A stretch of 57,044 nucleotides of DNA from a virus (lineage: Duplodnaviria; Caudoviricetes): positions 1 through 57,044 of IMG/VR virus record IMGVR_UViG_3300028908_000011; one strand, 5' to 3'. The notes beneath the pieces were generated by a model. The model saw only the letters and a program-made list of their open reading frames with translations, was not told the DNA's origin and ran no database searches. The position numbers and the translations under genes were made by a program. Of this stretch, positions 236-57,044 are shown piece after piece; position 1 is the stretch's first letter; each line of letters starts with the position of its first letter.

Positions 236-712
236 GTGTTCCACTTTCAAACCTTAAAGCCGTGGAACACTCCATTTGAAGGGGTGTTCCATCGAACTGT
301 TCCAACTGGAACACTTCCGAAACTTAAACGAAAAGCCGTTTTTTCCAAACCTTAAGCGTTGGAACACTCCATTTGAAGGGGTGTTCCATTGGAATCACTT
401 CCTCGAAAATCGCTCGAAACTTAAACCAAAAAAACAAAACCTTAAGCGTTGGAACACTCCATTTGAAGGGGTGTTCCATTAACTTTTATCAACTGGAACA
501 CTTCCGAAACTTAAAGTTATTTTTCTAGCAGTTTCCAAACCTTAAGCGTTGGAACACTCCATTTAAAGGGGTGTTCCATTGGAATCACTTCCTCGAAAAT
601 CGCTCGAAACTTAAGAAAAATATACCATTTTTCAAACCTTAAAGCCGTGGAACACTCCATTTGAAGGGGTGTTCCATCGAACTGTTCCAAATGGAACACT
701 TCCGAAACTTAA
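236..712. repeat. Array of five ~78-bp units, each with the inverted repeat TGGAACACTCC-ATTTRAA-GGGGTGTTCCA
   Basis: Units start with AAACCTTAA at 249, 347, 437, 537, 634 and end with GAAACTTAA; inverted repeats at 263-291, 360-388, 450-478, 550-578, 648-676; 14 exact TGGAACAC/GTGTTCCA octamers counted by eye. Confidence 0.95.
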
Positions 713-714
713 AT

Positions 715-2274
715 TTAATAGTCTTTTTGCATATATTCAAAAAACTTATCTGTCGGTCTTGTTTTTTCTCCCTTCCTAACTATAAATAGTTCCTCTTTAT
801 CTTTGTAGAACTTTGTTACATCTCTCGGGTGCAATATAAGCTCATCTATTATCTCTCTTGCACTTGGAACCTCACCGGTCTTTTCATATACCTCTTTTAT
901 ATAGTTCAATATAGCTGTATTTTTATCTATGTTGATAGCTATGTCTATGTCTCCGGCTTCAACTTTTTTCTTATCGTTTTCATACCTTTGAAGCTCAGCT
1001 TCTTCTATGCTCTTGTCTATGTCTTCAAGCGTTACTGACGGCTTAAAATCATCCGTCTCTTTATTATTAACTTCCGGTAAATCTTCATTTACTTCCGGTA
1101 AAGTTTCATTTACTGCTTGCATTTCTGTTTTGAACTCATTTTTAGCAGCAGAGTAGGGCGGTTTAACTGTTACAGCCTTCTTAAATATCCCTGCATTTAG
1201 ATCGCTGTTTTTTGCATTATCAAAACTTCTTAGCGCGTCTTCAAAGCTTCGATTATGCATGTAATCCATAGCGGATAGAGCCAGAAATACAAATACTGCA
1301 ACTATCCAGTAATATGAATCTTTTATCTTGTTATTTATCTGAGCTATTCTTCCATTTAGTCTGGTCTGTAATCCAACTAACTCATCTTGATATTTCTTAA
1401 GATCGAACCTTATTTTTGCCAGATCTTTCTCAGCGCTCTCTAGCCATACCTTCTTAGCGTCCTTCTTTGATACCTTAGAGGCGTTTAGCCTCTCTTCCAA
1501 AGGTCTAACCATTGCATTGTACTTTTCAGCCATTAGAGCGCGTGCTATGCGTGTAAATGAACCGTCTTTATTTAGGTTTATCTTTTTCTTTTTCTCTAAC
1601 GCTTCTATCTTCTTGTAGGAGAGTAGGGCGCTCTTGTACTCTTTTTCAAGCTTTTTAATATCTTCCGTGTTTCCGGACCCGTAATTATCATCTATTTTTC
1701 TCTTACCCTCTTTGACTTCATTTATCTTTATAGATAGTTTTTCTTCAAGGGTTTTATAATGCTCAACTCTTGCTTTGTTTATATTTACTTCATCTACGTA
1801 AGCACTTGGAACAAGTGCCATTATAACGGTGTTTTTTGCGCCTCCCACAAAGGTATATAGTTGCGTTGCGGTAAGAAGGCTTATCGCCATAGCTCTTATA
1901 AAAAGGATTGCTATATCATCGCCTCTTTTGACTGCATCAAATGTTCCAGACATTGTCTTAGTTGAGCTTATCTCCAGGATATAAGACAACATTACAGATG
2001 TAACAGCCGTGTATAGAAAAATAGGGTATCCCTGTCTTTCCAATAGCGTTAGATCTATTCCTATATTGTTTAAAGGCACTCTCAGCCACTCCGGGAGTGA
2101 GTACATTAACATCATTGTGGTTGAAAATAGAGATATGAAGTGAAAAAAGTATTTTGCAAGTAAGAAATAAAAGCTATCTCTTAGTCTTTTTCTTATTCTC
2201 TCTTTTATGTACTTTGGGTTTTTTAATAGCATTGTCTTTTGACCCACGATTGCTATTTCCGCGATTCTTAACAT
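715..2274 (-). CDS. Multi-pass membrane protein with long coiled coil and C-terminal winged-helix-like domain
   Basis: 519 aa; several N-terminal hydrophobic segments, K/E-rich coiled coil, TM YYWIVAVFVFLALSAM, C-terminal ILNYIKEVYEKTGEVPSAREI resembling a LexA-type wHTH. Confidence 0.7.
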   Translation of the reverse strand: MLRIAEIAIVGQKTMLLKNPKYIKERIRKRLRDSFYFLLAKYFFHFISLFSTTMMLMYSLPEWLRVPLNNIGIDLTLLERQGYPIFLYTAVTSVMLSYILEISSTKTMSGTFDAVKRGDDIAILFIRAMAISLLTATQLYTFVGGAKNTVIMALVPSAYVDEVNINKARVEHYKTLEEKLSIKINEVKEGKRKIDDNYGSGNTEDIKKLEKEYKSALLSYKKIEALEKKKKINLNKDGSFTRIARALMAEKYNAMVRPLEERLNASKVSKKDAKKVWLESAEKDLAKIRFDLKKYQDELVGLQTRLNGRIAQINNKIKDSYYWIVAVFVFLALSAMDYMHNRSFEDALRSFDNAKNSDLNAGIFKKAVTVKPPYSAAKNEFKTEMQAVNETLPEVNEDLPEVNNKETDDFKPSVTLEDIDKSIEEAELQRYENDKKKVEAGDIDIAINIDKNTAILNYIKEVYEKTGEVPSAREIIDELILHPRDVTKFYKDKEELFIVRKGEKTRPTDKFFEYMQKDY

Positions 2275-2992: not shown

Positions 2993-3853
2993 TTAGAAAT
3001 CATAATAGGGTAGGGCGGTGACTTGACTCTTTATCAATTCGTATGCCTTTTTAGACTCCTTCCATCTGTCAACAGTCGCATAATGCTTTAACATACCTGC
3101 GAAAAGAGTCTCTACGCTATGCCCAAGACTTGCCATGGCTGTCTGCTGGTTACCACCGTGCGCTATTACATTGCTTGCTAAAAGCGATCTGTATTTGTGC
3201 GCTGTTATATTGACTCCGGATAGTAGGGCAATATCTTTGTTGTGTTTGTAATACTTATAGTTTGTATGGTTGTTAAACACATAAATAGAGCTATTATCGC
3301 GATCTTTGAGTAGGGCGGATATCTCATCCGGCAAGTAGTAAGTTTGTTCTTTATCGCCGTTTTTTGTGTTTCTAATGGTATAAGACGGTCGATCGAAATC
3401 TATATCTCTCCACTCCAGATTTTCTATTTCTGACTTCCTTCGTCCGAAAAAAGCGAAAAAGAATAGCGCCTTCCAGTATGGATCACCTAAGCTGCTTATT
3501 GCTTCATATGTTGCTTTTAACTTATGACTGAAATCCTGCTGTGGCTGAATCTTTGTTTTAGGTCTGTGGATATAAGAGACTAACCCGGTATAGTCTCTCA
3601 AAGCTGGTCTTAATATCCTAGCAACATTTTGAAGTGATCTCCCTGATAGTCTTTTTCTCTTTACGTTGAAGTGATAATCATCGACTTGTCTTGCAAGAGA
3701 TTTGAAAAACTCTTTTGTGGCTTCTTCTATTTTCATATCTCCAACTATAGGAAGTATCCATTTGTCGAAAAATCTGATTAGTGCCTGATCTTCTTTTGAG
3801 TAGTTTTTTGTTTTGAAGTGTAGATATACTGCTTCTTTTATTGTAGTTATCAA
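2993..3853 (-). CDS. Tyrosine recombinase (integrase/resolvase)
   Basis: Catalytic motifs GRRKSE, TKNG, HKYR, LGH and HY. Confidence 0.9.
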   Translation of the reverse strand: MITTIKEAVYLHFKTKNYSKEDQALIRFFDKWILPIVGDMKIEEATKEFFKSLARQVDDYHFNVKRKRLSGRSLQNVARILRPALRDYTGLVSYIHRPKTKIQPQQDFSHKLKATYEAISSLGDPYWKALFFFAFFGRRKSEIENLEWRDIDFDRPSYTIRNTKNGDKEQTYYLPDEISALLKDRDNSSIYVFNNHTNYKYYKHNKDIALLSGVNITAHKYRSLLASNVIAHGGNQQTAMASLGHSVETLFAGMLKHYATVDRWKESKKAYELIKSQVTALPYYDF

Positions 3854-9183: not shown

Positions 9184-9456
9184 TTACTCTTTCTTATAGA
9201 TTTTTAACATGTCTTCCAGATACTCTAATGGAGTGTCTAAAACATCTTTCCAAGTGTAGTTTTTTAAACCTAACTCGTTTTTTTCGACACTTTCCTTACT
9301 GCAGTACCCTACTCCAAGTCTATCAAGCTCTTTTAGAATTTCAAGTTTTCTTCTTAATCTGCTTTTTCTACTACCTAAAAACTCATTGTTTCTCATGGCT
9401 TGATCGTACATTATGCACAAAATAAAAATCAAAAACACATATAATAAATTCTCCAT
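9184..9456 (-). CDS. Hypothetical protein with N-terminal TM
   Basis: 90 aa ORF in lysis region. Confidence 0.6.
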   Translation of the reverse strand: MENLLYVFLIFILCIMYDQAMRNNEFLGSRKSRLRRKLEILKELDRLGVGYCSKESVEKNELGLKNYTWKDVLDTPLEYLEDMLKIYKKE

Positions 9457-17447: not shown

Positions 17448-18716
17448 CTAAATCCTTTTAACTGCTATATCTAGCAGACTTCTGACGTCTCTTTTCTTTT
17501 TCTGCTGTAAATCGCTTTTTAAGACATTTTCTTTGACTTCCCTATTCCTTCTATTGATTGAACTTCTTTCGTTCAAATTTGGCACCTTTCTGTTAATCTC
17601 TACCCCATAAGTGCTACTGTAATGATTGTAAATATAAGTCGCTCTCTTGCCTATGTTGTTTAAGAGATAAAATTTTCCGTCTTTCAAAACTACTCTTTCC
17701 CCTCTTGCATCATAGACAACATAATTTTCGCCTCTATCTAATATTTTAGGATCCGGTAACTCTCCGTAATTCCCTCTTTTAACCCACTCTCTGTAAACCT
17801 CTATCCAGTCGCTGGCTTTATGGTCGGGTCTTGTAAGCATATAGTAATCTGCAAACTTCTTTTCGTTTGTAGCGTTGTCTATCGTTGCTATCCTGCATCT
17901 CCACTCCGATAGGTCTATACTGCTTAGATACTCTTTAAGCGTTTGCTTTGTGTCTATATTTTCATGCTTTGAAGATGTGCTGTTCATGTGGTGCGATTCA
18001 AAATCCATCATAAACGGCGTGATTCTGACTGAATAGTTACCGTTTTCTTTTTGGTACTTGATATATTTCTCTTTTAGGTCTTCGATCAGCCCTTTCTCTT
18101 TTAGCTCTTTGTAGAGCTTTTTGCCTTCTTTAGTTTTTGTGACTTTGCTTTTTAAAGGAGCTTTGCTTTTGAGATCCTCGATAAAGGTTTCGTAATTTTC
18201 TTTTTTGGTATTTTTTTTGATTTTGTTTTGTTCACATCCGCATGTGTGTTTATATATGTGTTTAAATTCTTTGTTTAATATATATAGTATGTTATGGTTA
18301 AAGTTGTTTACCATTATTGGTAAAAGTTCTTTACCATTAATAGTAAAAGTTTTTAACCATTGATCGTATTTTAATTGGTAAAAGTTTTTAACCATTAATT
18401 TCTTTTTTGTTTTTGTTCTTTCACCATCTATTGAAAAATTTACTCCATATTTATACCCTGTTCTTTGTTTCCCGTATCTCTTTATAAGCTTCAATTCTAT
18501 AAGCCCTGTTAAAGCCTTTATTACTGTTGGTTTTGACTTTCCTACAATATTGCATATTTTTTCAACTGTTAGAGTGTCGGTTCTGCTTCTTTGCCATCCT
18601 GTAGTATTTCTTATGATCACATGGTATATTTTAAACTCTGCATCCGTTATTTTTGTTATTAACTCATCAACTATGATATTTGGAGTTTGGTACGAATTTG
18701 GTATATACTTACTCAT
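17448..18716 (-). CDS. Phage replication initiator (lambda O-like N-terminus)
   Basis: PNSYQTPNIIVDE...EFKIYHVIIRNTTGWQR plus wHTH; internal iterons. Confidence 0.82.
   Translation of the reverse strand: MSKYIPNSYQTPNIIVDELITKITDAEFKIYHVIIRNTTGWQRSRTDTLTVEKICNIVGKSKPTVIKALTGLIELKLIKRYGKQRTGYKYGVNFSIDGERTKTKKKLMVKNFYQLKYDQWLKTFTINGKELLPIMVNNFNHNILYILNKEFKHIYKHTCGCEQNKIKKNTKKENYETFIEDLKSKAPLKSKVTKTKEGKKLYKELKEKGLIEDLKEKYIKYQKENGNYSVRITPFMMDFESHHMNSTSSKHENIDTKQTLKEYLSSIDLSEWRCRIATIDNATNEKKFADYYMLTRPDHKASDWIEVYREWVKRGNYGELPDPKILDRGENYVVYDARGERVVLKDGKFYLLNNIGKRATYIYNHYSSTYGVEINRKVPNLNERSSINRRNREVKENVLKSDLQQKKKRDVRSLLDIAVKRI
18295..18397. repeat. Four ~22-bp imperfectly palindromic iterons, putative lytic origin
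   Basis: TGGTAAAAGTTTTTAACCATTA-like copies at 18295, 18318, 18341, 18376, beside an AT-rich tract. Confidence 0.8.
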
Positions 18717-35218: not shown

Positions 35219-36793
35219 TTAATCCTCTATCAAAAATGGTTTTTCTTTTGTATATATCATATAACCCCGCTTTTCCGTAATTATATGATCGTACTTATTA
35301 CCTGCATCAACAAACACTCTTAGATTTGAAATAAGTGAAAATCCTGAATACCCGTCGGCACTTCCTAGCAATCTATCAAACTTGCTTTGAAAGTCTCCTC
35401 CTATCATAGTTTTTTCTCCTATCTTCGCGCCGTTTATAAGCAACATTGTCTTTTTATTATTGTTGTCATAGGAAACCACAAAATGCGTCCATTTGTGCTT
35501 GATATCACCTCTTGTAACTCCTGATGGTAGCGTAAAATCTACATCGTTACCCTGGAATCCGACGTGAAAAGTATTTGCGTTTTTAAAACCTATTTTTAAG
35601 GTGGTGTTGTTACTGTTTGCTATGCTGTTACCTATAAAATATCCTATGTCTTCACTTACATTTATCCAGAATGAAAAAGCGAAAGACTTAAATGCTAAAT
35701 CTATGCCGTTATGCGACACATTAAAATAAGTTCCGCACCCGTAACTGTTTCCATCTATACCGCACCCGCCTCTTATGATGTCGTAAATACTGTTTTCCGG
35801 CGTCAATCTCTGTCTAAAAGAAGTTGAGCCGCTTCCTTTTCTTCTAATGTAGTTAGTAGTAAATAGATTCGCGCGACCGCCATTATTGATTATTCCGAAA
35901 GGATCAACTACTCTATGTAGTTTTCTTGCTTTCTCGTATAGATATGAGCCTGTTATATTCCAAGCATTTTTAGCACCTATGAAAGTAAACTCTAAAGCCG
36001 AACTGTTTGTAAACATTTCTATTTTAGAACTTGTACTTCCTCCTGTATCTATTGCATGCCCGTTTCCTTCGATTTCAATATTGTATATATTTCCTTCAAC
36101 TTTTGCTATGACTCTATCTCCGTCTTTAGGGCTTGTAGGTAAATATAGTTTTACATTGTCCGTCATGGCGGATAAGACAACAAAGCTATTAGGGTTGCAC
36201 CCCTCCGTTGTGCTGTCTATCTTTTTGTATGTCAGAGATGTGTCCGATGTACCTGATGCAAGATCGGATAGATCAACTCCTATAGTGCTGTTATCGGATA
36301 GTTTTAGATTAAGCTTCTTTGTAGAGCTATCGTAAGTCCCCGAGCTTAGCTTTACATCTTTTGCAAGCTCGGTCATATCTACTGCAACAATACTATTATC
36401 GGATAGTTTTAGATTTAGCTTCTTTGTAGATGTATCGTAAGTGCCTGAGCTTAGCTTTACATCTTTCGTCAACTCGCTTAGGTCTATCTCTACAGTGCTG
36501 TTATCTGATAGCGTTAGCTTCAGCTTCTTCGCCGTTTTGTCATACGTCCCCGAATCAAGCTTTACGTCTTTGTTGAGCGCACTAAGGTCAGCTTTGATCT
36601 TTTTCCCGCTGTCTAATGTTAATTCCAGCTCTTTGGTCGTGCCGTTGTAGGTAGCGGTTTTTAAAGGATCTCCGCCTGTAGCGTTGTTATTTGAGCTATC
36701 GGATTCTAAGCAATCTCCAAAGTTTCTTATGCACTTAGACACACCGTCCTTTATAACGTCAAACTTTTGTTCGTTGATATCATAGTTAGCCAT
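35219..36793 (-). CDS. Virion structural protein with 35-aa repeats and C-terminal LamG-like domain
   Basis: DVKLSSGTYD..TKKLNLKLSDNS repeats; FAFSFWIN...KWTHFVVSYD...LLING. Confidence 0.7.
   Translation of the reverse strand: MANYDINEQKFDVIKDGVSKCIRNFGDCLESDSSNNNATGGDPLKTATYNGTTKELELTLDSGKKIKADLSALNKDVKLDSGTYDKTAKKLKLTLSDNSTVEIDLSELTKDVKLSSGTYDTSTKKLNLKLSDNSIVAVDMTELAKDVKLSSGTYDSSTKKLNLKLSDNSTIGVDLSDLASGTSDTSLTYKKIDSTTEGCNPNSFVVLSAMTDNVKLYLPTSPKDGDRVIAKVEGNIYNIEIEGNGHAIDTGGSTSSKIEMFTNSSALEFTFIGAKNAWNITGSYLYEKARKLHRVVDPFGIINNGGRANLFTTNYIRRKGSGSTSFRQRLTPENSIYDIIRGGCGIDGNSYGCGTYFNVSHNGIDLAFKSFAFSFWINVSEDIGYFIGNSIANSNNTTLKIGFKNANTFHVGFQGNDVDFTLPSGVTRGDIKHKWTHFVVSYDNNNKKTMLLINGAKIGEKTMIGGDFQSKFDRLLGSADGYSGFSLISNLRVFVDAGNKYDHIITEKRGYMIYTKEKPFLIED
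36254..36670 (-). repeat. Four tandem ~105-bp coding repeats
   Basis: Three near-identical 35-aa units plus one diverged unit. Confidence 0.85.
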
Positions 36794-41773: not shown

Positions 41774-42523
41774 TCAAAGCACTTCTTTAGCTACACTAGG
41801 TCTCAATGCTACACTCCAGATCTTATCTTTCAACTCGCTTTCAAATATCAAAGTTTTTCCATTTAGGTCTATCTGCAAGATCTCGGTGATCTGTCGTCCG
41901 ATTTCTTCGTCCGGGAGATCTATATTTTTCAGGTCAATAACGGCTTCAAAATCGTCGTTTAGGCTATCTTTTAGTATTTGTTTGAGTGTTGTATCAGGTT
42001 CGCTTACTTCGGCTTCTATGTAGTCGTTTTTTGCTATTTGTCTTGCTTCCAGTTCTTCGTCTGAAAAATACTCGCTATCAACATTTTTAGTTAATTTTAG
42101 TTTTTCAAAATCCCACTCATAAGTCATTTTCAACTTTCTAATTGCATGTATGTTACCTTTGCCAAAAATATGCGGATTTAACTGATATGTTCCCCTTCCA
42201 ACTCTTTTTATTATTTGCTTTCTTACAAGCCCTGTTATAGAGTTATTTATAGATTTTAAAGATATATTCATAAGTTCAGATATTCTGTCTTTAACTAACC
42301 TATTTACAACAACCTCATTATCATTAAAAGTAACATACTTCATTAATCCGAACACTGTTTGGATTTCTGTTTTAGATAGATTTTTCATAAAACCTATACT
42401 TTCAATGAAGGTCATAAAAAATATATCTTCCTTTGAACTTTTTGTTATTCTGTTTTCCCTTGTTATTATTTCTCCTGTTTCCGGATTCTCTCTTGTTTCT
42501 ATTGCTTCGTAAGTAATACTCAT
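41774..42523 (-). CDS. Plasmid-type replication/maintenance protein (RepL-like wHTH)
   Basis: NPETGEI N-terminus; ISELMNISLKSINNSITGL...GRGTYQLNPHIFGKG; iterons upstream. Confidence 0.78.
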   Translation of the reverse strand: MSITYEAIETRENPETGEIITRENRITKSSKEDIFFMTFIESIGFMKNLSKTEIQTVFGLMKYVTFNDNEVVVNRLVKDRISELMNISLKSINNSITGLVRKQIIKRVGRGTYQLNPHIFGKGNIHAIRKLKMTYEWDFEKLKLTKNVDSEYFSDEELEARQIAKNDYIEAEVSEPDTTLKQILKDSLNDDFEAVIDLKNIDLPDEEIGRQITEILQIDLNGKTLIFESELKDKIWSVALRPSVAKEVL

Positions 42524-42532
42524 TTTGTGCCT

Positions 42533-42958
42533 TATTCCTTTTTTTTTGGGAATAATATAGAATTTTTTCTTTAATGTTCCTAAATTTTTGGGAATATTGT
42601 AGAATTTTTGGTATATTGTTCCTTTTTTTTTGGGAATAAGCTTTAAAAATCTTTTTTTATATACCCCTATCTAGGGAACCTTATACCCCTATCCAGGGAA
42701 TTATATACCCCTATCCAGGGAATTAGCAAAAGTGGTGTTAAGCCCTAAATTTAGGGATTTGAACAACTTTTTTTTAAAAAATCTCTTATTTATAGTAATA
42801 AGTACTTTTCCTATTCCTTTTTTTTGGGAATATACATTTTTAAAAATGTATTGTGTAATATTTAATATTACAATATACACTTTTTAGCGTGTATTACCTA
42901 TAAAATTTCATTTTTTGGATACACTCTATGGATGTACTTGATACACGCTATGGATGTA
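42533..42958. promoter_or_regulatory. Putative plasmid-type origin region
   Basis: Four TTCC-N9-GGGAATA-type sites (42533, 42577, 42619, 42812), palindromes 42743-42756, 42832-42851, 42854-42872, two GATACACNCTATGGATGTA repeats (42918, 42940), AT-rich. Confidence 0.7.
42660..42725. repeat. Three tandem 22-bp iterons TATACCCCTATCYAGGGAAnnn
   Basis: Copies at 42660, 42682, 42704. Confidence 0.9.
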
Positions 42959-43208
42959 TTTCATTTTTTTCTTCAAGCATTTTTAGACTTCCGATCTTTT
43001 TTTTATGCTGTTTAGGCGGGTGGTGGGCACTATTTTAACGTTCAAGCCGTCCAGCCCAATAAGCCCCCTCTCCTTCAAGTGGCGTTCGCCTTGCATCTTG
43101 CTAACTTTTTTTGGCGGATCTAGCAGATACGGTGCGGTTTATCCTTTGCTAGCCGATCAGCGCTGTTCGATTGTCTTAGGATTTGCACATTATCCGGCTA
43201 CAAGCTTT

Positions 43209-48500: not shown

Positions 48501-49229
48501 CTATAAGATAATTTTGCTTTCCCTTTTTATGTTTATATTTACTTTGTCCGTTCCTTTATAAGAACTTAGTTTTATACAGTCTCCATGCTTTTCTTTTAGT
48601 AGTCTCTTATCGCTTTCAAGATTATCGCTACTTCTTAAGATACTGCTACCGCCTGCATTGTAGTTTTTATGACTGTAGAAAGAAAATCTATTGTCTATCC
48701 AGATAAACCTGTTTTTATATAACTGTGTCAAGCAGAAATCAACGTCAACTCTTATTTTCAGCCTTTCGTCAAAGAAGTCGTTTTTCCCTATTATTCCAAT
48801 TATAGAGCCAATCCAACCTTTTAAGAGGAAAGGTTTTGACGGATTATACTTTCTGGGATCCATTGTTTGATTAAATCCAAATACAACTGCTCCTACATCT
48901 TTTGCACATATATAGCAGTTGTTTAATATCTGATCTATTACTTCCGGATCTTTTATAGAGTTTGCTTTTTTTCTGCATACCGAATAAAAACTTGTTATAT
49001 CATCATCTATCATGATAATGTCTTCTTTGTAGTTTCTTATACAGTAGTTTCTCACTTTTGCAAGTCCAATAACATCATCCGGTAGTGTTTCTATTTTGTC
49101 AGGGTCTATCTTTTTGGCGTACCTGTCTTTTTCGCTATCCGGGACTAATACTATGTAGTCCTTTAAGAGTTTGTGTGTGGTTATTGTGTTGTATCTCCCT
49201 CTGGAGACGATTATCTTCTTAAGATTCAT
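48501..49229 (-). CDS. GT-A glycosyltransferase (TET-associated/GREB1-like), putative DNA modification
   Basis: SRGR, VRNY, MIDDD, DVDFCL, NAGG motifs; next to ParB-N gene. Confidence 0.72.
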   Translation of the reverse strand: MNLKKIIVSRGRYNTITTHKLLKDYIVLVPDSEKDRYAKKIDPDKIETLPDDVIGLAKVRNYCIRNYKEDIIMIDDDITSFYSVCRKKANSIKDPEVIDQILNNCYICAKDVGAVVFGFNQTMDPRKYNPSKPFLLKGWIGSIIGIIGKNDFFDERLKIRVDVDFCLTQLYKNRFIWIDNRFSFYSHKNYNAGGSSILRSSDNLESDKRLLKEKHGDCIKLSSYKGTDKVNINIKRESKIIL

Positions 49230-49929
49230 CTTTGCCGCCTAACAACTCGACTAGCTTTGTTCCGTCAACTACCCTTCCTAATCCAATTTTTTTTACTTTA
49301 GGCGATAGAGATGCGTCCACTTTTTTAATTCCAAGCCCTGTAAGACACTTTACGTAATCATTTACGTCGTCAAACTTAAATACGATAAAGTCCTGATGCT
49401 CGAATAGCATAGGATTCATCCTTTCTGTCTCTTTATCGTTTTTTTCTTTTGTTTCTATTACATTACTGTCGTCATCAAATATATCGCTGTGGAGTATATC
49501 CATTAACTCGTCTTCGTCAAACCCTAAAGAATCGGTATCTATTAAGTCTTGTAAGCCTTCAATCTCTGCTGATAATAACTCCATATCAAAAAAGCTTTCC
49601 TCGGCTACTCTGTTATCTGCTATCGCATAAGCCTTTAACTGTGCCTCTGTGAGGTGTTCCGCTCTTATGCAAGGGATTTTATCGATCTTTAGCCTTCTAG
49701 CGGCTTCCAGTCTTCCGTTTCCTGCAATCACTATGTTATCGTTGTCTATAACTATTGGATTTATAAATCCAAACTCTTTTAGACTCTTTGCTATCTTTTC
49801 TATACTCTTTGAACTGTGTACATTTACATTTTCGTCATTTAGGTGTAGATCTTTTTGGTCTATATAGATAGTTTTCAGCTTCAAATTTTTGCCTTTTTTG
49901 TTTTTTTGATTGTAGTCTTTTTTTAACAA
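49219..49929 (-). CDS. ParB N-terminal domain protein (DNA-modification-associated type)
   Basis: SLKEFGFINPIVID..NIVIAGNGRLEAA...YAIADNR; start uncertain. Confidence 0.85.
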   Translation of the reverse strand: MLKKDYNQKNKKGKNLKLKTIYIDQKDLHLNDENVNVHSSKSIEKIAKSLKEFGFINPIVIDNDNIVIAGNGRLEAARRLKIDKIPCIRAEHLTEAQLKAYAIADNRVAEESFFDMELLSAEIEGLQDLIDTDSLGFDEDELMDILHSDIFDDDSNVIETKEKNDKETERMNPMLFEHQDFIVFKFDDVNDYVKCLTGLGIKKVDASLSPKVKKIGLGRVVDGTKLVELLGGKDES

Positions 49930-54781: not shown

Positions 54782-55051
54782 CTAGCTAAAAAGTTCTTCT
54801 TTGATTCTGATTTTTCTTTTTAATATTCCGTCAACTTTAGTTACGCTTCTTTCTATTAGACCTGCATATGCTAAGCGTCTAAGTGAGCTTTTGCAGGTAT
54901 AGATATTAAGATTTACAGTTTTTGCAATATCCGAATTGCTTATTTCTGTTATTCCGCTACTGTCTTTTGCGGACTCTTGAAGAGCAGATAACACTAGTTT
55001 ATCTGTAGTTGATATTTTTAGACTCATTATCTTATCGTTTATGCAAACCAT
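54782..55051 (-). CDS. Winged HTH protein
   Basis: SNSDIAKTVNLNIYTCKSSLRRLAYAGLIER. Confidence 0.75.
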   Translation of the reverse strand: MVCINDKIMSLKISTTDKLVLSALQESAKDSSGITEISNSDIAKTVNLNIYTCKSSLRRLAYAGLIERSVTKVDGILKRKIRIKEELFS

Positions 55052-56229: not shown

Positions 56230-56604
56230 CTACATTTTATCAATATCAAAATCTACCTTGTTGTCAAACTCGTCTATGCTTTTATTTATAACATCTATGG
56301 CTATTTCTATATCTTTTAACTCCTCTGTGAGCTTATCTATCTCTTTTATTGTTTCTTTCAAAGTGTTTCCAGTTGTTAAAAGATCATCTCGTTTTAAGTC
56401 TGTAGCGTCATTTGAGTAGATCTTTGCTATCTTCTTAAAGTTTGCATTTAGACCTTTAAGCTCACTATTCAACGTCGCTCTCTCATCTAGTTTTTTAGCC
56501 TTTTTTTCCTGTAGTTTTTCAAGCTCATTTGTAAGCTTTTTTTCTACTTCTTCTATGTTCTTCATTATATGTTCAATAGAACTTTTTTTAACATCTACAT
56601 TCAT
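56230..56604 (-). CDS. Coiled-coil hypothetical protein
   Basis: 124 aa, AAGGAG RBS. Confidence 0.7.
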   Translation of the reverse strand: MNVDVKKSSIEHIMKNIEEVEKKLTNELEKLQEKKAKKLDERATLNSELKGLNANFKKIAKIYSNDATDLKRDDLLTTGNTLKETIKEIDKLTEELKDIEIAIDVINKSIDEFDNKVDFDIDKM

Positions 56605-56645: not shown

Positions 56646-56843
56646 TTAACTATCTTTGTCTATAAACGACTCCAAAAATATCTTTGATGGCTCTTTTCTT
56701 TCACATGTAAGGCACTCAAAATATCCCCTAAAGTCATCAAAGAAACTCTCTATGATGTAACTACTGAATCCGAATTTTTCTTCTAGTTCTTTATCTGAAA
56801 TAAGCACTTTATTTTTCTTATAACTGTCGATAAATAACTTCAT
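56646..56843 (-). CDS. Hypothetical protein
   Basis: 65 aa, ATGA overlap with upstream ORF. Confidence 0.6.
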   Translation of the reverse strand: MKLFIDSYKKNKVLISDKELEEKFGFSSYIIESFFDDFRGYFECLTCERKEPSKIFLESFIDKDS

Positions 56844-57007
56844 AATTTTTCTCTTTTTCTTTGCCTCCTTTTCAAAATTTTTTTGTCTTTGTCTAGCTCA
56901 TATTGATAGAGTAGGGCGGTTAAAAACGACCTCTTATCTTTTAACTCTGCTTCCATTTTTTCAAAATTTTTTATCAATTTTTTTATCGATTTTTTCTTGA
57001 TCTTCAT
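56840..57007 (-). CDS. 55-aa basic protein beginning within the terminal overlap (not in ORF track)
   Basis: MKIKKKSIKKLIKNFEKMEAELKDKRSFLTALLYQYELDK...; AAGGAG RBS. Confidence 0.55.
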   Translation of the reverse strand: MKIKKKSIKKLIKNFEKMEAELKDKRSFLTALLYQYELDKDKKILKRRQRKREKL

Positions 57008-57044
57008 GTATTTTTTTCTCCTTTTTTTATTAATTTTTTGTCAA
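56918..57044. repeat. 127-bp terminal direct repeat, copy 2
   Basis: Identical to 1-127. Confidence 0.95.

Follow-up and report, generated by a model that had tools for sequence, protein, structure and literature searches.

A vent-phage membrane protein with a LexA-like winged helix and the repeat array at its stop codon as a probable binder-site pair

In the genome of a tailed phage (IMG/VR record IMGVR_UViG_3300028908_000011), we found that a 519-amino-acid (aa) membrane protein, encoded on the minus strand at 715-2274, ends in a winged helix-turn-helix (HTH) of LexA-like fold and that its stop codon abuts a dense array of short repeats. The record was analysed over its full 57,044 bases, a single contig that we call the window. 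The winged helix probably binds the adjacent array, a reading to which we give a probability of roughly 0.6. As to function, we tentatively favour, at somewhat short of even odds, the view that the protein, tethered to the membrane, regulates or organises the adjacent locus in an element-specific way and couples this to sensing by an outward-facing domain.

The octamer TGGAACAC occurs in 14 exact copies in the window, all of them within 236-699, whereas dinucleotide shuffles gave an expectation of 0.89 and reached 14 copies in 0 of 100 trials; this bears out the clustering reported in an earlier note on this DNA. Allowing one mismatch added two copies inside the array (TGGAACAG, at 297-304 and 682-689), for a total of 16 sites. 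The array (229-723) is built of five units of ~97 bp (~229-338, 339-428, 429-528, 529-626 and 627-723; unit length ~94-97 bp, start-to-start spacings 97, 90, 100 and 98), which are of two alternating types in the order A-B-A'-B-A. Every unit carries an 11-7-11 palindrome, TGGAACACTCC-ATTTGAA-GGGGTGTTCCA, with inverted arms of 11 bp that include one G.T position and are separated by 7 bp (palindromes at 263-291, 360-388, 450-478, 550-578 and 648-676). Since the half-sites are 21 bp apart and the unit spacing of 90-100 bp is no whole number of helical turns, the phasing is only local, and the earlier description of a phased array holds for the half-sites and not array-wide. As that note had stated, 2 bp separate the array, if taken to 712, from the stop codon (715-717) of the open reading frame (ORF) at 715-2274; the array occupies most of the 624-bp gap between this stop codon and the start of a 55-aa ORF at position 90 (= 57,007). 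In an independent assembly of the sole public run that holds the stretch, which is labelled as a hydrothermal vent metagenome, contigs broke within the array; because the unique junction pieces had the depth of the flanks (21-26 and 25-26, respectively), the five-unit structure is plausible and shows no obvious artefact. The run is of DNA and is probably the source of the record, and no RNA run was listed for the stretch. A CRISPR-like array was set aside, as the "spacers" recur between units, and tandem terminators or promoters were rejected with one terminator-like match only and no sigma-70-like match within the array.

The gene upstream encodes a predicted polytopic inner-membrane protein. 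An alternative start at 2232 would give 505 aa; the alignment of homologues extends to residue 1. In the full-length AlphaFold2 model (mean predicted local distance difference test score, pLDDT, 72.5) hydrophobic helices span residues 21-70, 85-117 and 121-154, and hydropathy, model helices, invariant columns and loop charge bias together place transmembrane (TM) helices TM1-TM3 at residues 35-154 (1813-2172, minus strand, as are all segments of the protein given here), the region that holds the most conserved motifs of the family, FHFxSxFSTT and QLYTFVGG. Next in the model come long, coiled-coil-like helices of ~160 aa (residues 157-316; 1327-1806), which we place outside the cytoplasm; TM4 (YYW...LSAMD; residues 320-340; 1255-1317), supported by hydropathy, model and alignment and forming the hydrophobic core of a model helix at 319-355; and a disordered, acidic linker of variable length (residues 356-450; 925-1209), delimited by pLDDT and alignment. 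The pLDDT falls below 50 over linker residues 366-420 and 434-449, the linker is gapped in all homologues, and residues 341-519 hold 40 D/E versus 29 K/R. Within the linker-coding DNA, a 21-bp tandem repeat (1066-1114; 2.3 copies) encodes the repeated peptide LPEVNxD, which fits a linker of variable length. The earlier note had described this same arrangement of several TM helices, a coiled coil, a further TM helix and an acidic linker, and it stands except for the length of the helical part, which had been put at ~200 aa.

By the positive-inside rule, basic segments are cytoplasmic. The N-terminus holds 5-10 K/R versus 1-3 D/E in 12 of 13 family members (the exception, P0014, has a 7-residue N-terminus without charged residues), loop 1 is net acidic in 11 of the 13, and a hairpin would need a longer third hydrophobic stretch; for these reasons the protein most likely has four TM helices with both termini inside, so that the winged helix would be cytoplasmic and the long helices would face outward. 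A periplasmic C-terminal domain, which the earlier note had named as fatal to its reading, is thus not what the charge bias predicts.

The C-terminal domain (residues 451-519; 718-924) is compact in the full-length model (pLDDT ~89) and forms a LexA/MntR-like winged HTH with helices at 451-466 (H1), 472-479 (H2) and 483-492 (H3), a wing at 497-507 and an extra helix at 509-517. Folded alone, from an alignment of 17 such domains, it reached a pLDDT of 86.9 with the order helix-helix-helix-hairpin-helix. The top Foldseek match was Thermotoga maritima LexA (3k2z; E 6.5e-3, prob 1.00, TM(query) 0.56), followed by MntR and GntR/AraR DNA-binding domains, and every top match was a DNA-binding winged helix. 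Structure matches in an atlas led to LexA_DNA_bind clusters, and a feature search of the atlas returned unnamed viral clusters only. Five of the 17 C-terminal domains matched the Pfam family LexA_DNA_bind (PF01726) at E <= 1. Since the Pfam score of the window's own domain lies below threshold (given below) and the Foldseek matches are winged helices, we call the domain LexA-like by its modelled fold and do not count it as a LexA_DNA_bind family member; the LexA-like HTH that the earlier note had read from the letters is upheld in this sense. The 519-aa protein gave no match to Peptidase_S24, its winged helix being at the extreme C-terminus, and a fold search with the full-length model returned generic long-helix matches only (TM <= 0.15).

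The protein belongs to no Pfam (E <= 0.01), PHROG, PADLOC or NCBIfam family. A word-indexed BLASTP search recovered six close metagenomic homologues (39-50% identity), and an exhaustive profile search of 1.84 billion representatives returned 15 proteins at E <= 0.001, among them seven distant full-length members and three small proteins of 86-116 aa (P0010, P0016 and P0018) in which the winged helix stands alone, two of these having a short coiled coil at one end or the other. No relative was found in three completed scans of viral contigs, in an initial scan of genome contigs or in a phylum-wide sample of 401 genomes. A search of 401 genomes of the order Campylobacterales gave two strong matches (G354 and G339), here loci L018 and L019; four further weak, short matches (E 8e-5 to 7e-4) were disregarded. 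In the bacterial family of both positive genomes, 2 of 32 genomes were positive, namely those two. Two metagenome contigs with homologues, L001 and L002, complete the comparison, and the tRNA-Leu beside the L001 copy matched Campylobacterales genomes, among others. A limited search of the literature found no description of such a protein family.

In all four other loci, a run of 7-8-bp repeats, forward copies before reverse ones, sets in at the stop codon of the homologue or no more than a few bases from it. Comparison of the top k-mer count with 1000 shuffles of each locus's intergenic stretch revealed that this clustering is significant in three of the four (L002: CTTTTTCA x7, 0/1000; L018: CTTTACCA x6, 0/1000; L019: CCTTTCA x5, 6/1000), as it is in the window (GTGTTCCA x14, 0/1000). 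The earlier note had proposed looking for arrays beside homologues elsewhere, and they are there, with locus-specific motifs. L018 and L002, whose recognition helices start with SSRDIT and STRDIT, share CTTTACCA, while L019 (SIGVLT), L001 (SSDTIK) and the window (HPRDVT) each have a distinct motif; it is suggestive, if anecdotal at n = 5, that the motif appears to track the first residues of the recognition helix. The window palindrome, with its central core CCCCTT(C/T)AAATGG, aligns locally to the centre of the L018 cluster (p <= 0.005), and the two share a core, CCCCTT.AAAT.G, flanked by locus-specific sites. Because a window unit aligns to the L018 cluster core in this way, the window array looks like a fivefold amplification of an ancestral element made of a core plus flanking sites.

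A third component travels with the gene and its sites. In each of the four other loci, the site cluster is followed by a coiled-coil gene of ~113-121 aa (in L019 after one intervening ORF), and the window encodes a 124-aa coiled-coil protein (56230-56604, minus strand) beyond two small ORFs from the array, with 28% identity to the L001 counterpart (BLASTP, E 7e-11). These proteins have no recognisable DNA-binding domain and gave weak PADLOC matches only, which we take to be coiled-coil artefacts. Between L001 and L018, identity is 18% in the membrane part, 57% in the winged helix and 56% in the coiled-coil protein; between L001 and L002 it is 88%, 55% and 72%, respectively. These pairwise identities indicate that winged helix, sites and coiled-coil gene are inherited as one block, which, as judged from the same alignments, is attached to two different membrane bodies and within a lineage diverges faster than the membrane body.

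On this anatomy, fold, pairing of gene with sites and block-wise inheritance, which are observed, we build an account in which topology, binding and regulatory output are inferred. An inner-membrane protein made of three TM helices, an outward helical domain of ~160 aa, TM4, an acidic linker of ~100 aa and a cytoplasmic winged helix would recognise, through the last, the short repeats that start at its own stop codon. The ancestral element, a conserved core with two specific sites, would have been amplified here to five tandem units and 16 sites, on which several membrane-held molecules could load side by side, as pairs, with half-sites two helical turns apart, and binding would keep this part of the element's DNA membrane-bound. 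The sites always fall between the membrane-protein gene and the co-inherited coiled-coil gene of ~120 aa. We favour a regulator or organiser because the sites lie between the regulator and a co-inherited gene, and because the outward domain suggests sensing.

Several observations weigh against this account. The array is 480 bp long and leaves ~145 bp between its nearest site and the start codon that follows, dimensions that centromeres and origins show more typically than operators do; this is the best point for a centromere-like or scaffold role. The window's next genes are two unrelated small ORFs, not the coiled-coil gene, and these 55-aa and 65-aa ORFs, or the HTH_24 protein encoded at 54782-55051, could supply an alternative binder nearby. 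The LexA_DNA_bind score of the C-terminal domain is sub-threshold (18 bits versus a gathering cut-off of 23.7; E 0.0025), and the predicted topology is deduced from charge bias. In L001, the top repeat (AGGTAAG x3) was equalled in 121 of 1000 shuffles and is not significant. The L018 copy is without the first ~60 residues (profile match from position 64, in-frame stops upstream). Since the winged helices of L018 and L019 are 67% identical and their motifs differ, the co-variation of motif and protein comes down to a few helix residues in five loci, and these five (the window, L001, L002, L018 and L019) stand for a family of at least 15 members.

The array might instead be bound by another protein, such as a small-ORF product, a repressor, the integrase or a host factor, with the adjacency of the 519-aa gene incidental; the array could then be, e.g., an early-promoter control region or a region of recombination sites. 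We consider this doubtful. The array lies upstream of an operon of small ORFs without family matches, the conserved core within the clusters could belong to a second factor, and co-variation with the sites is as strong for the coiled-coil gene as for the winged helix; however, the homologue of the 519-aa protein is directly upstream of the sites in 5/5 loci, with the cluster starting at or near the stop codon in the four others, the coiled-coil gene, present in 5/5 loci, lacks a recognisable DNA-binding domain, the window's small ORFs are unseen in the other loci, and the integrase types differ (a 286-aa short type in the window, P4 type in L002). The 11-7-11 geometry of the palindrome is that of simple tyrosine-recombinase core sites, yet the relatives' flanking sites are direct repeats 29-30 bp apart, and lox-like recombination sites were rejected on this count. 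An attP with arm sites was likewise set aside, the window's integrase being of the short type without a detected arm-binding domain. As array binder, the ParB_N protein (49219-49929) was also set aside; its gene is beside a glycosyltransferase gene and far from the array.

Also doubtful is a self-specific device, free of a nucleoside triphosphatase (NTPase), that fastens the element's DNA to the cell envelope, the array serving as a centromere-like or replication-factory anchor of the excised genome. As part of it, a four-TM protein with an envelope-spanning helical domain would grip a private, fast-evolving site cluster through its tethered winged helix.

The remaining explanations bear on the genomic setting of the block and its membrane-protein gene, together called the cassette. 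It follows two genes after the integrase in the window, ends beside the 3' end of the tRNA-Leu in L001 and has ordinary host genes next to it in L018. In L002 it closes a ~7-kb stretch that opens with an integrase and an HTH_17 protein and is followed by a P4-type integrase, and in L019 its neighbours within a P2-like prophage region include a CI repressor and a primase-helicase. Thus L001, L018 and L002 look integrated, and L019 only lies in a prophage-like region. The gene order of L002 (1-7000) is HTH_17 protein, 232-aa ORF, 169-aa HTH-containing ORF and cassette, between two integrases, and the stretch looks like a small satellite-like island. Just past the cassette, L002 (6277-6540) and L018 (~9240-9300) have a common conserved flank with TTTAGGGATA repeats, which in L002 is directly upstream of the P4-type integrase with its arm-binding domain; this flank is a possible attachment-site region.

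It is unlikely that the cassette is a module for exclusion or abortive infection, expressed in lysogens and resembling AbiP or PdpSau, with the repeats as no more than an autoregulatory operator. The cassette is common to a phage, a P2-like prophage and a satellite-like island, it is found close to integrase or immunity genes at the ends of prophages or islands, places in which accessory genes collect, and membrane-anchored DNA-binding Abi proteins are known (PMC10127798). However, no PADLOC model matched the window protein or three of four remote homologues tested (the fourth, P0013, gave a single weak match to PbeC at E 7.6e-4, which we attribute to the coiled coil), AbiP and PdpSau, with a single TM helix and an OB fold, are not described as having a cognate site array, 6-16 sites are many for autoregulation, and the sites are downstream of the gene, away from its promoter.

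The earlier note had read the pair as serving NTPase-free partition or membrane anchoring, by which the circular, plasmid-like phage genome would be segregated or positioned, a reading that we regard as quite unlikely. Part of its case is sound: 16 sites in 480 bp, in both orientations and directly after the gene of their putative binder, resemble centromeres, a RepL-like gene with plasmid-style iterons is present, in keeping with the plasmid-type replicon that the note had mentioned, rapid divergence of binder and sites fits incompatibility-type selection, and its statement that ParA, ParM and TubZ are missing agrees with our finding none at E <= 0.01 in the 69 minus-strand ORFs that the scan covered. 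NTPase-free systems with membrane contact do exist: pSK1 Par and pneumococcal RocS combine a DNA-binding domain, a coiled coil and membrane contact with no element-encoded NTPase (PMC11500499), and in R388 StbA/stbS the HTH protein goes with short direct repeats arranged in an array, again with no element-encoded NTPase (bioRxiv 10.1101/2022.04.29.490116). Par and RocS, however, have an N-terminal DNA-binding domain and a C-terminal amphipathic helix (DUF536), whereas the 519-aa protein has the reversed order and four integral TM helices, no DUF536 or PadR-type match was found in it, and the elements that carry its family are integrative, in contrast to those with single-protein partition systems. 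ParABS, ParMRC and TubZRC share with the window the clustering of repeats (16 sites, 236-699) beside the binder's gene and differ from it in having a segregation NTPase. The plasmid-partition role is weakened because the window encodes an integrase (286 aa; 2993-3853, minus strand; profile scan), three other loci look integrated and the fourth is prophage-like, integrated elements needing no partition; it also leaves the large, well-conserved outward-facing domain unexplained, and the window's replicons have iterons of their own.

These replicons are two. A Rep_O-type gene (17448-18716) holds four ~23-bp iterons with internal dyad symmetry (TGGTAAAAGTTCTTTACCA; 18293-18399) in a lambda-like origin layout, and the RepL-like gene (41774-42523), which sits among head-morphogenesis genes, has plasmid-style iterons upstream (42535-42961; 3 x 42 bp, 3 x 22 bp and 2 x 22 bp) and with them is a second replicon, in an odd place. 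Since both replication genes lie on or beside their own iterons, sites beside the binder's gene are a local rule, and the array is unlikely to be the origin of either gene. The Rep_O iteron half-sites, TGGTAAA/TTTACCA, are the same as the repeat motif of L018 and L002. In staphylococcal pathogenicity islands the origin is placed 3' of the initiator's gene. An array acting here as such an origin, or as a membrane-organised replication site like that of phi29 p16.7, is very unlikely. In its favour, the gene is followed at once by a central core between two opposed sets of short repeats, the cassette is carried by two kinds of element that replicate when induced, a phage and a satellite-like island, and membrane proteins are known to organise phage replication (PMC4974454). 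Against it, the window already has its two replicons, the 519-aa protein is devoid of helicase, primase and initiator domains, hhalign found no relation between its winged helix and the Rep_O N-terminus (probability 0.7%), and the cumulative GC skew shows no turn at any point of the genome.

By working principle, the closest analogues of the proposed membrane-held binder would be TraB/clt, pSK1 Par/RocS/StbA, phi29 p16.7 and AbiP/PdpSau, and the 519-aa protein lacks defining features of every family that could be tested here. Among systems with sites directly downstream of the binder's gene, F plasmid sopC consists of tandem units with inverted repeats after the gene of SopB. The window resembles it in having an array of inverted-repeat units right after the gene of a putative binder, whereas SopB is a soluble ParB-family protein that works with the SopA ATPase and no ParA-type partner was found among the 69 minus-strand ORFs. 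An iteron-type origin would call for an initiator with Rep domains, and the 519-aa protein has no Rep domain. Membrane-held winged helices are represented by ToxR, CadC and TcpP, which have an extracytoplasmic domain and bind repeats upstream of their targets; their winged helix is N-terminal, of OmpR type and joined to a single TM helix, whereas ours, LexA-like and at the C-terminus, comes after four TM helices and is connected to the membrane body by a disordered linker of ~100 aa. With the LexA N-terminal domain (PF01726) it shares the three-helix winged-helix fold with a beta-hairpin wing, but LexA repressors have an S24 peptidase/dimerisation domain, and in the present family the winged helix is fused to a membrane protein or stands alone.

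The phi29 protein p16.7, of ~130 aa with a single TM helix at the N-terminus, binds irrespective of sequence and lacks a site array; neither the sequence nor the fold matches of the 519-aa protein included it. This DNA-binding protein, phage-encoded and integral to the membrane, recruits replicating phage DNA there (PMC4974454). Streptomyces TraB is membrane-associated, and its C-terminal part recognises direct 8-bp repeats in clt, a plasmid region that acts in cis, with a specific TraB for the repeats of each plasmid (PMC4447253). Here, too, a C-terminal winged helix occurs with ~8-bp repeats in cis, which it would bind. TraB, however, is an FtsK/SpoIIIE-type ATP-driven translocase that forms hexameric pores, whereas the 519-aa protein has no FtsK/SpoIIIE or other Pfam domain and has four TM helices with a helical outward domain, and its family is hosted by Campylobacterales phages and islands, not conjugative plasmids.

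Binders of repeats beside their own gene (centromere binders, initiators, TraB) and membrane-held binders (ToxR, p16.7, RocS) are thus already familiar. What is new is an undescribed, tiny family, without an entry in four profile libraries, in which a LexA-like winged helix is fused to a polytopic membrane body, with probable sites flush against the stop codon and a block of winged helix, sites and coiled-coil gene swapped between two membrane bodies. If binding is confirmed, the pair would be a compact system for how vent Campylobacterales phages and satellites connect their DNA to the envelope, and a natural example of a matched binder-site specificity cassette.

Three small ORFs, all on the minus strand, flank the gene and the array. 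An 82-aa ORF with one TM helix and a basic tail (2174-2422) overlaps the start of the 519-aa ORF; its TM part is conserved upstream of the L001 and L002 homologues (tblastx; L002 62% over 29 aa), and the ORF upstream of the L019 homologue has no similarity to it. The first coding-strand genes downstream of the array are a basic 55-aa ORF (56840-57007, repeated at 1-90 as an ORF running off position 1) and a 65-aa ORF (56646-56843), neither of which matched a family.

Bases 1-127 of the record are identical to 56918-57044, and since both ends share these 127 bases the record is a circular assembly of ~56.9 kb (about 56,917 bp). Neither a close relative of the genome nor DNA similarity to 1-2300 was found among 50,697 phage records, and Rfam gave no match at gathering score over the whole window, with chance-level rows only in 1-800. 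The minus strand carries almost every gene, and those identified include terminase, portal, tail and baseplate proteins, holin, endolysin and RecT with a PD-(D/E)XK nuclease. Directly 3' of the integrase gene there are four tandem copies of a 10-bp unit, CTATTAAATT (2950-2987), which may be recombination-related sites. The gene of the ParB_N protein overlaps that of a TET-associated glycosyltransferase (TAGT) upstream of the terminase region (48501-49929), which suggests a link to DNA modification, not partition. Finally, a 105-bp tandem repeat (36270-36529; 2.5 copies, 80% matches) lies within the gene of a 524-aa Laminin_G_3 protein (35219-36793).

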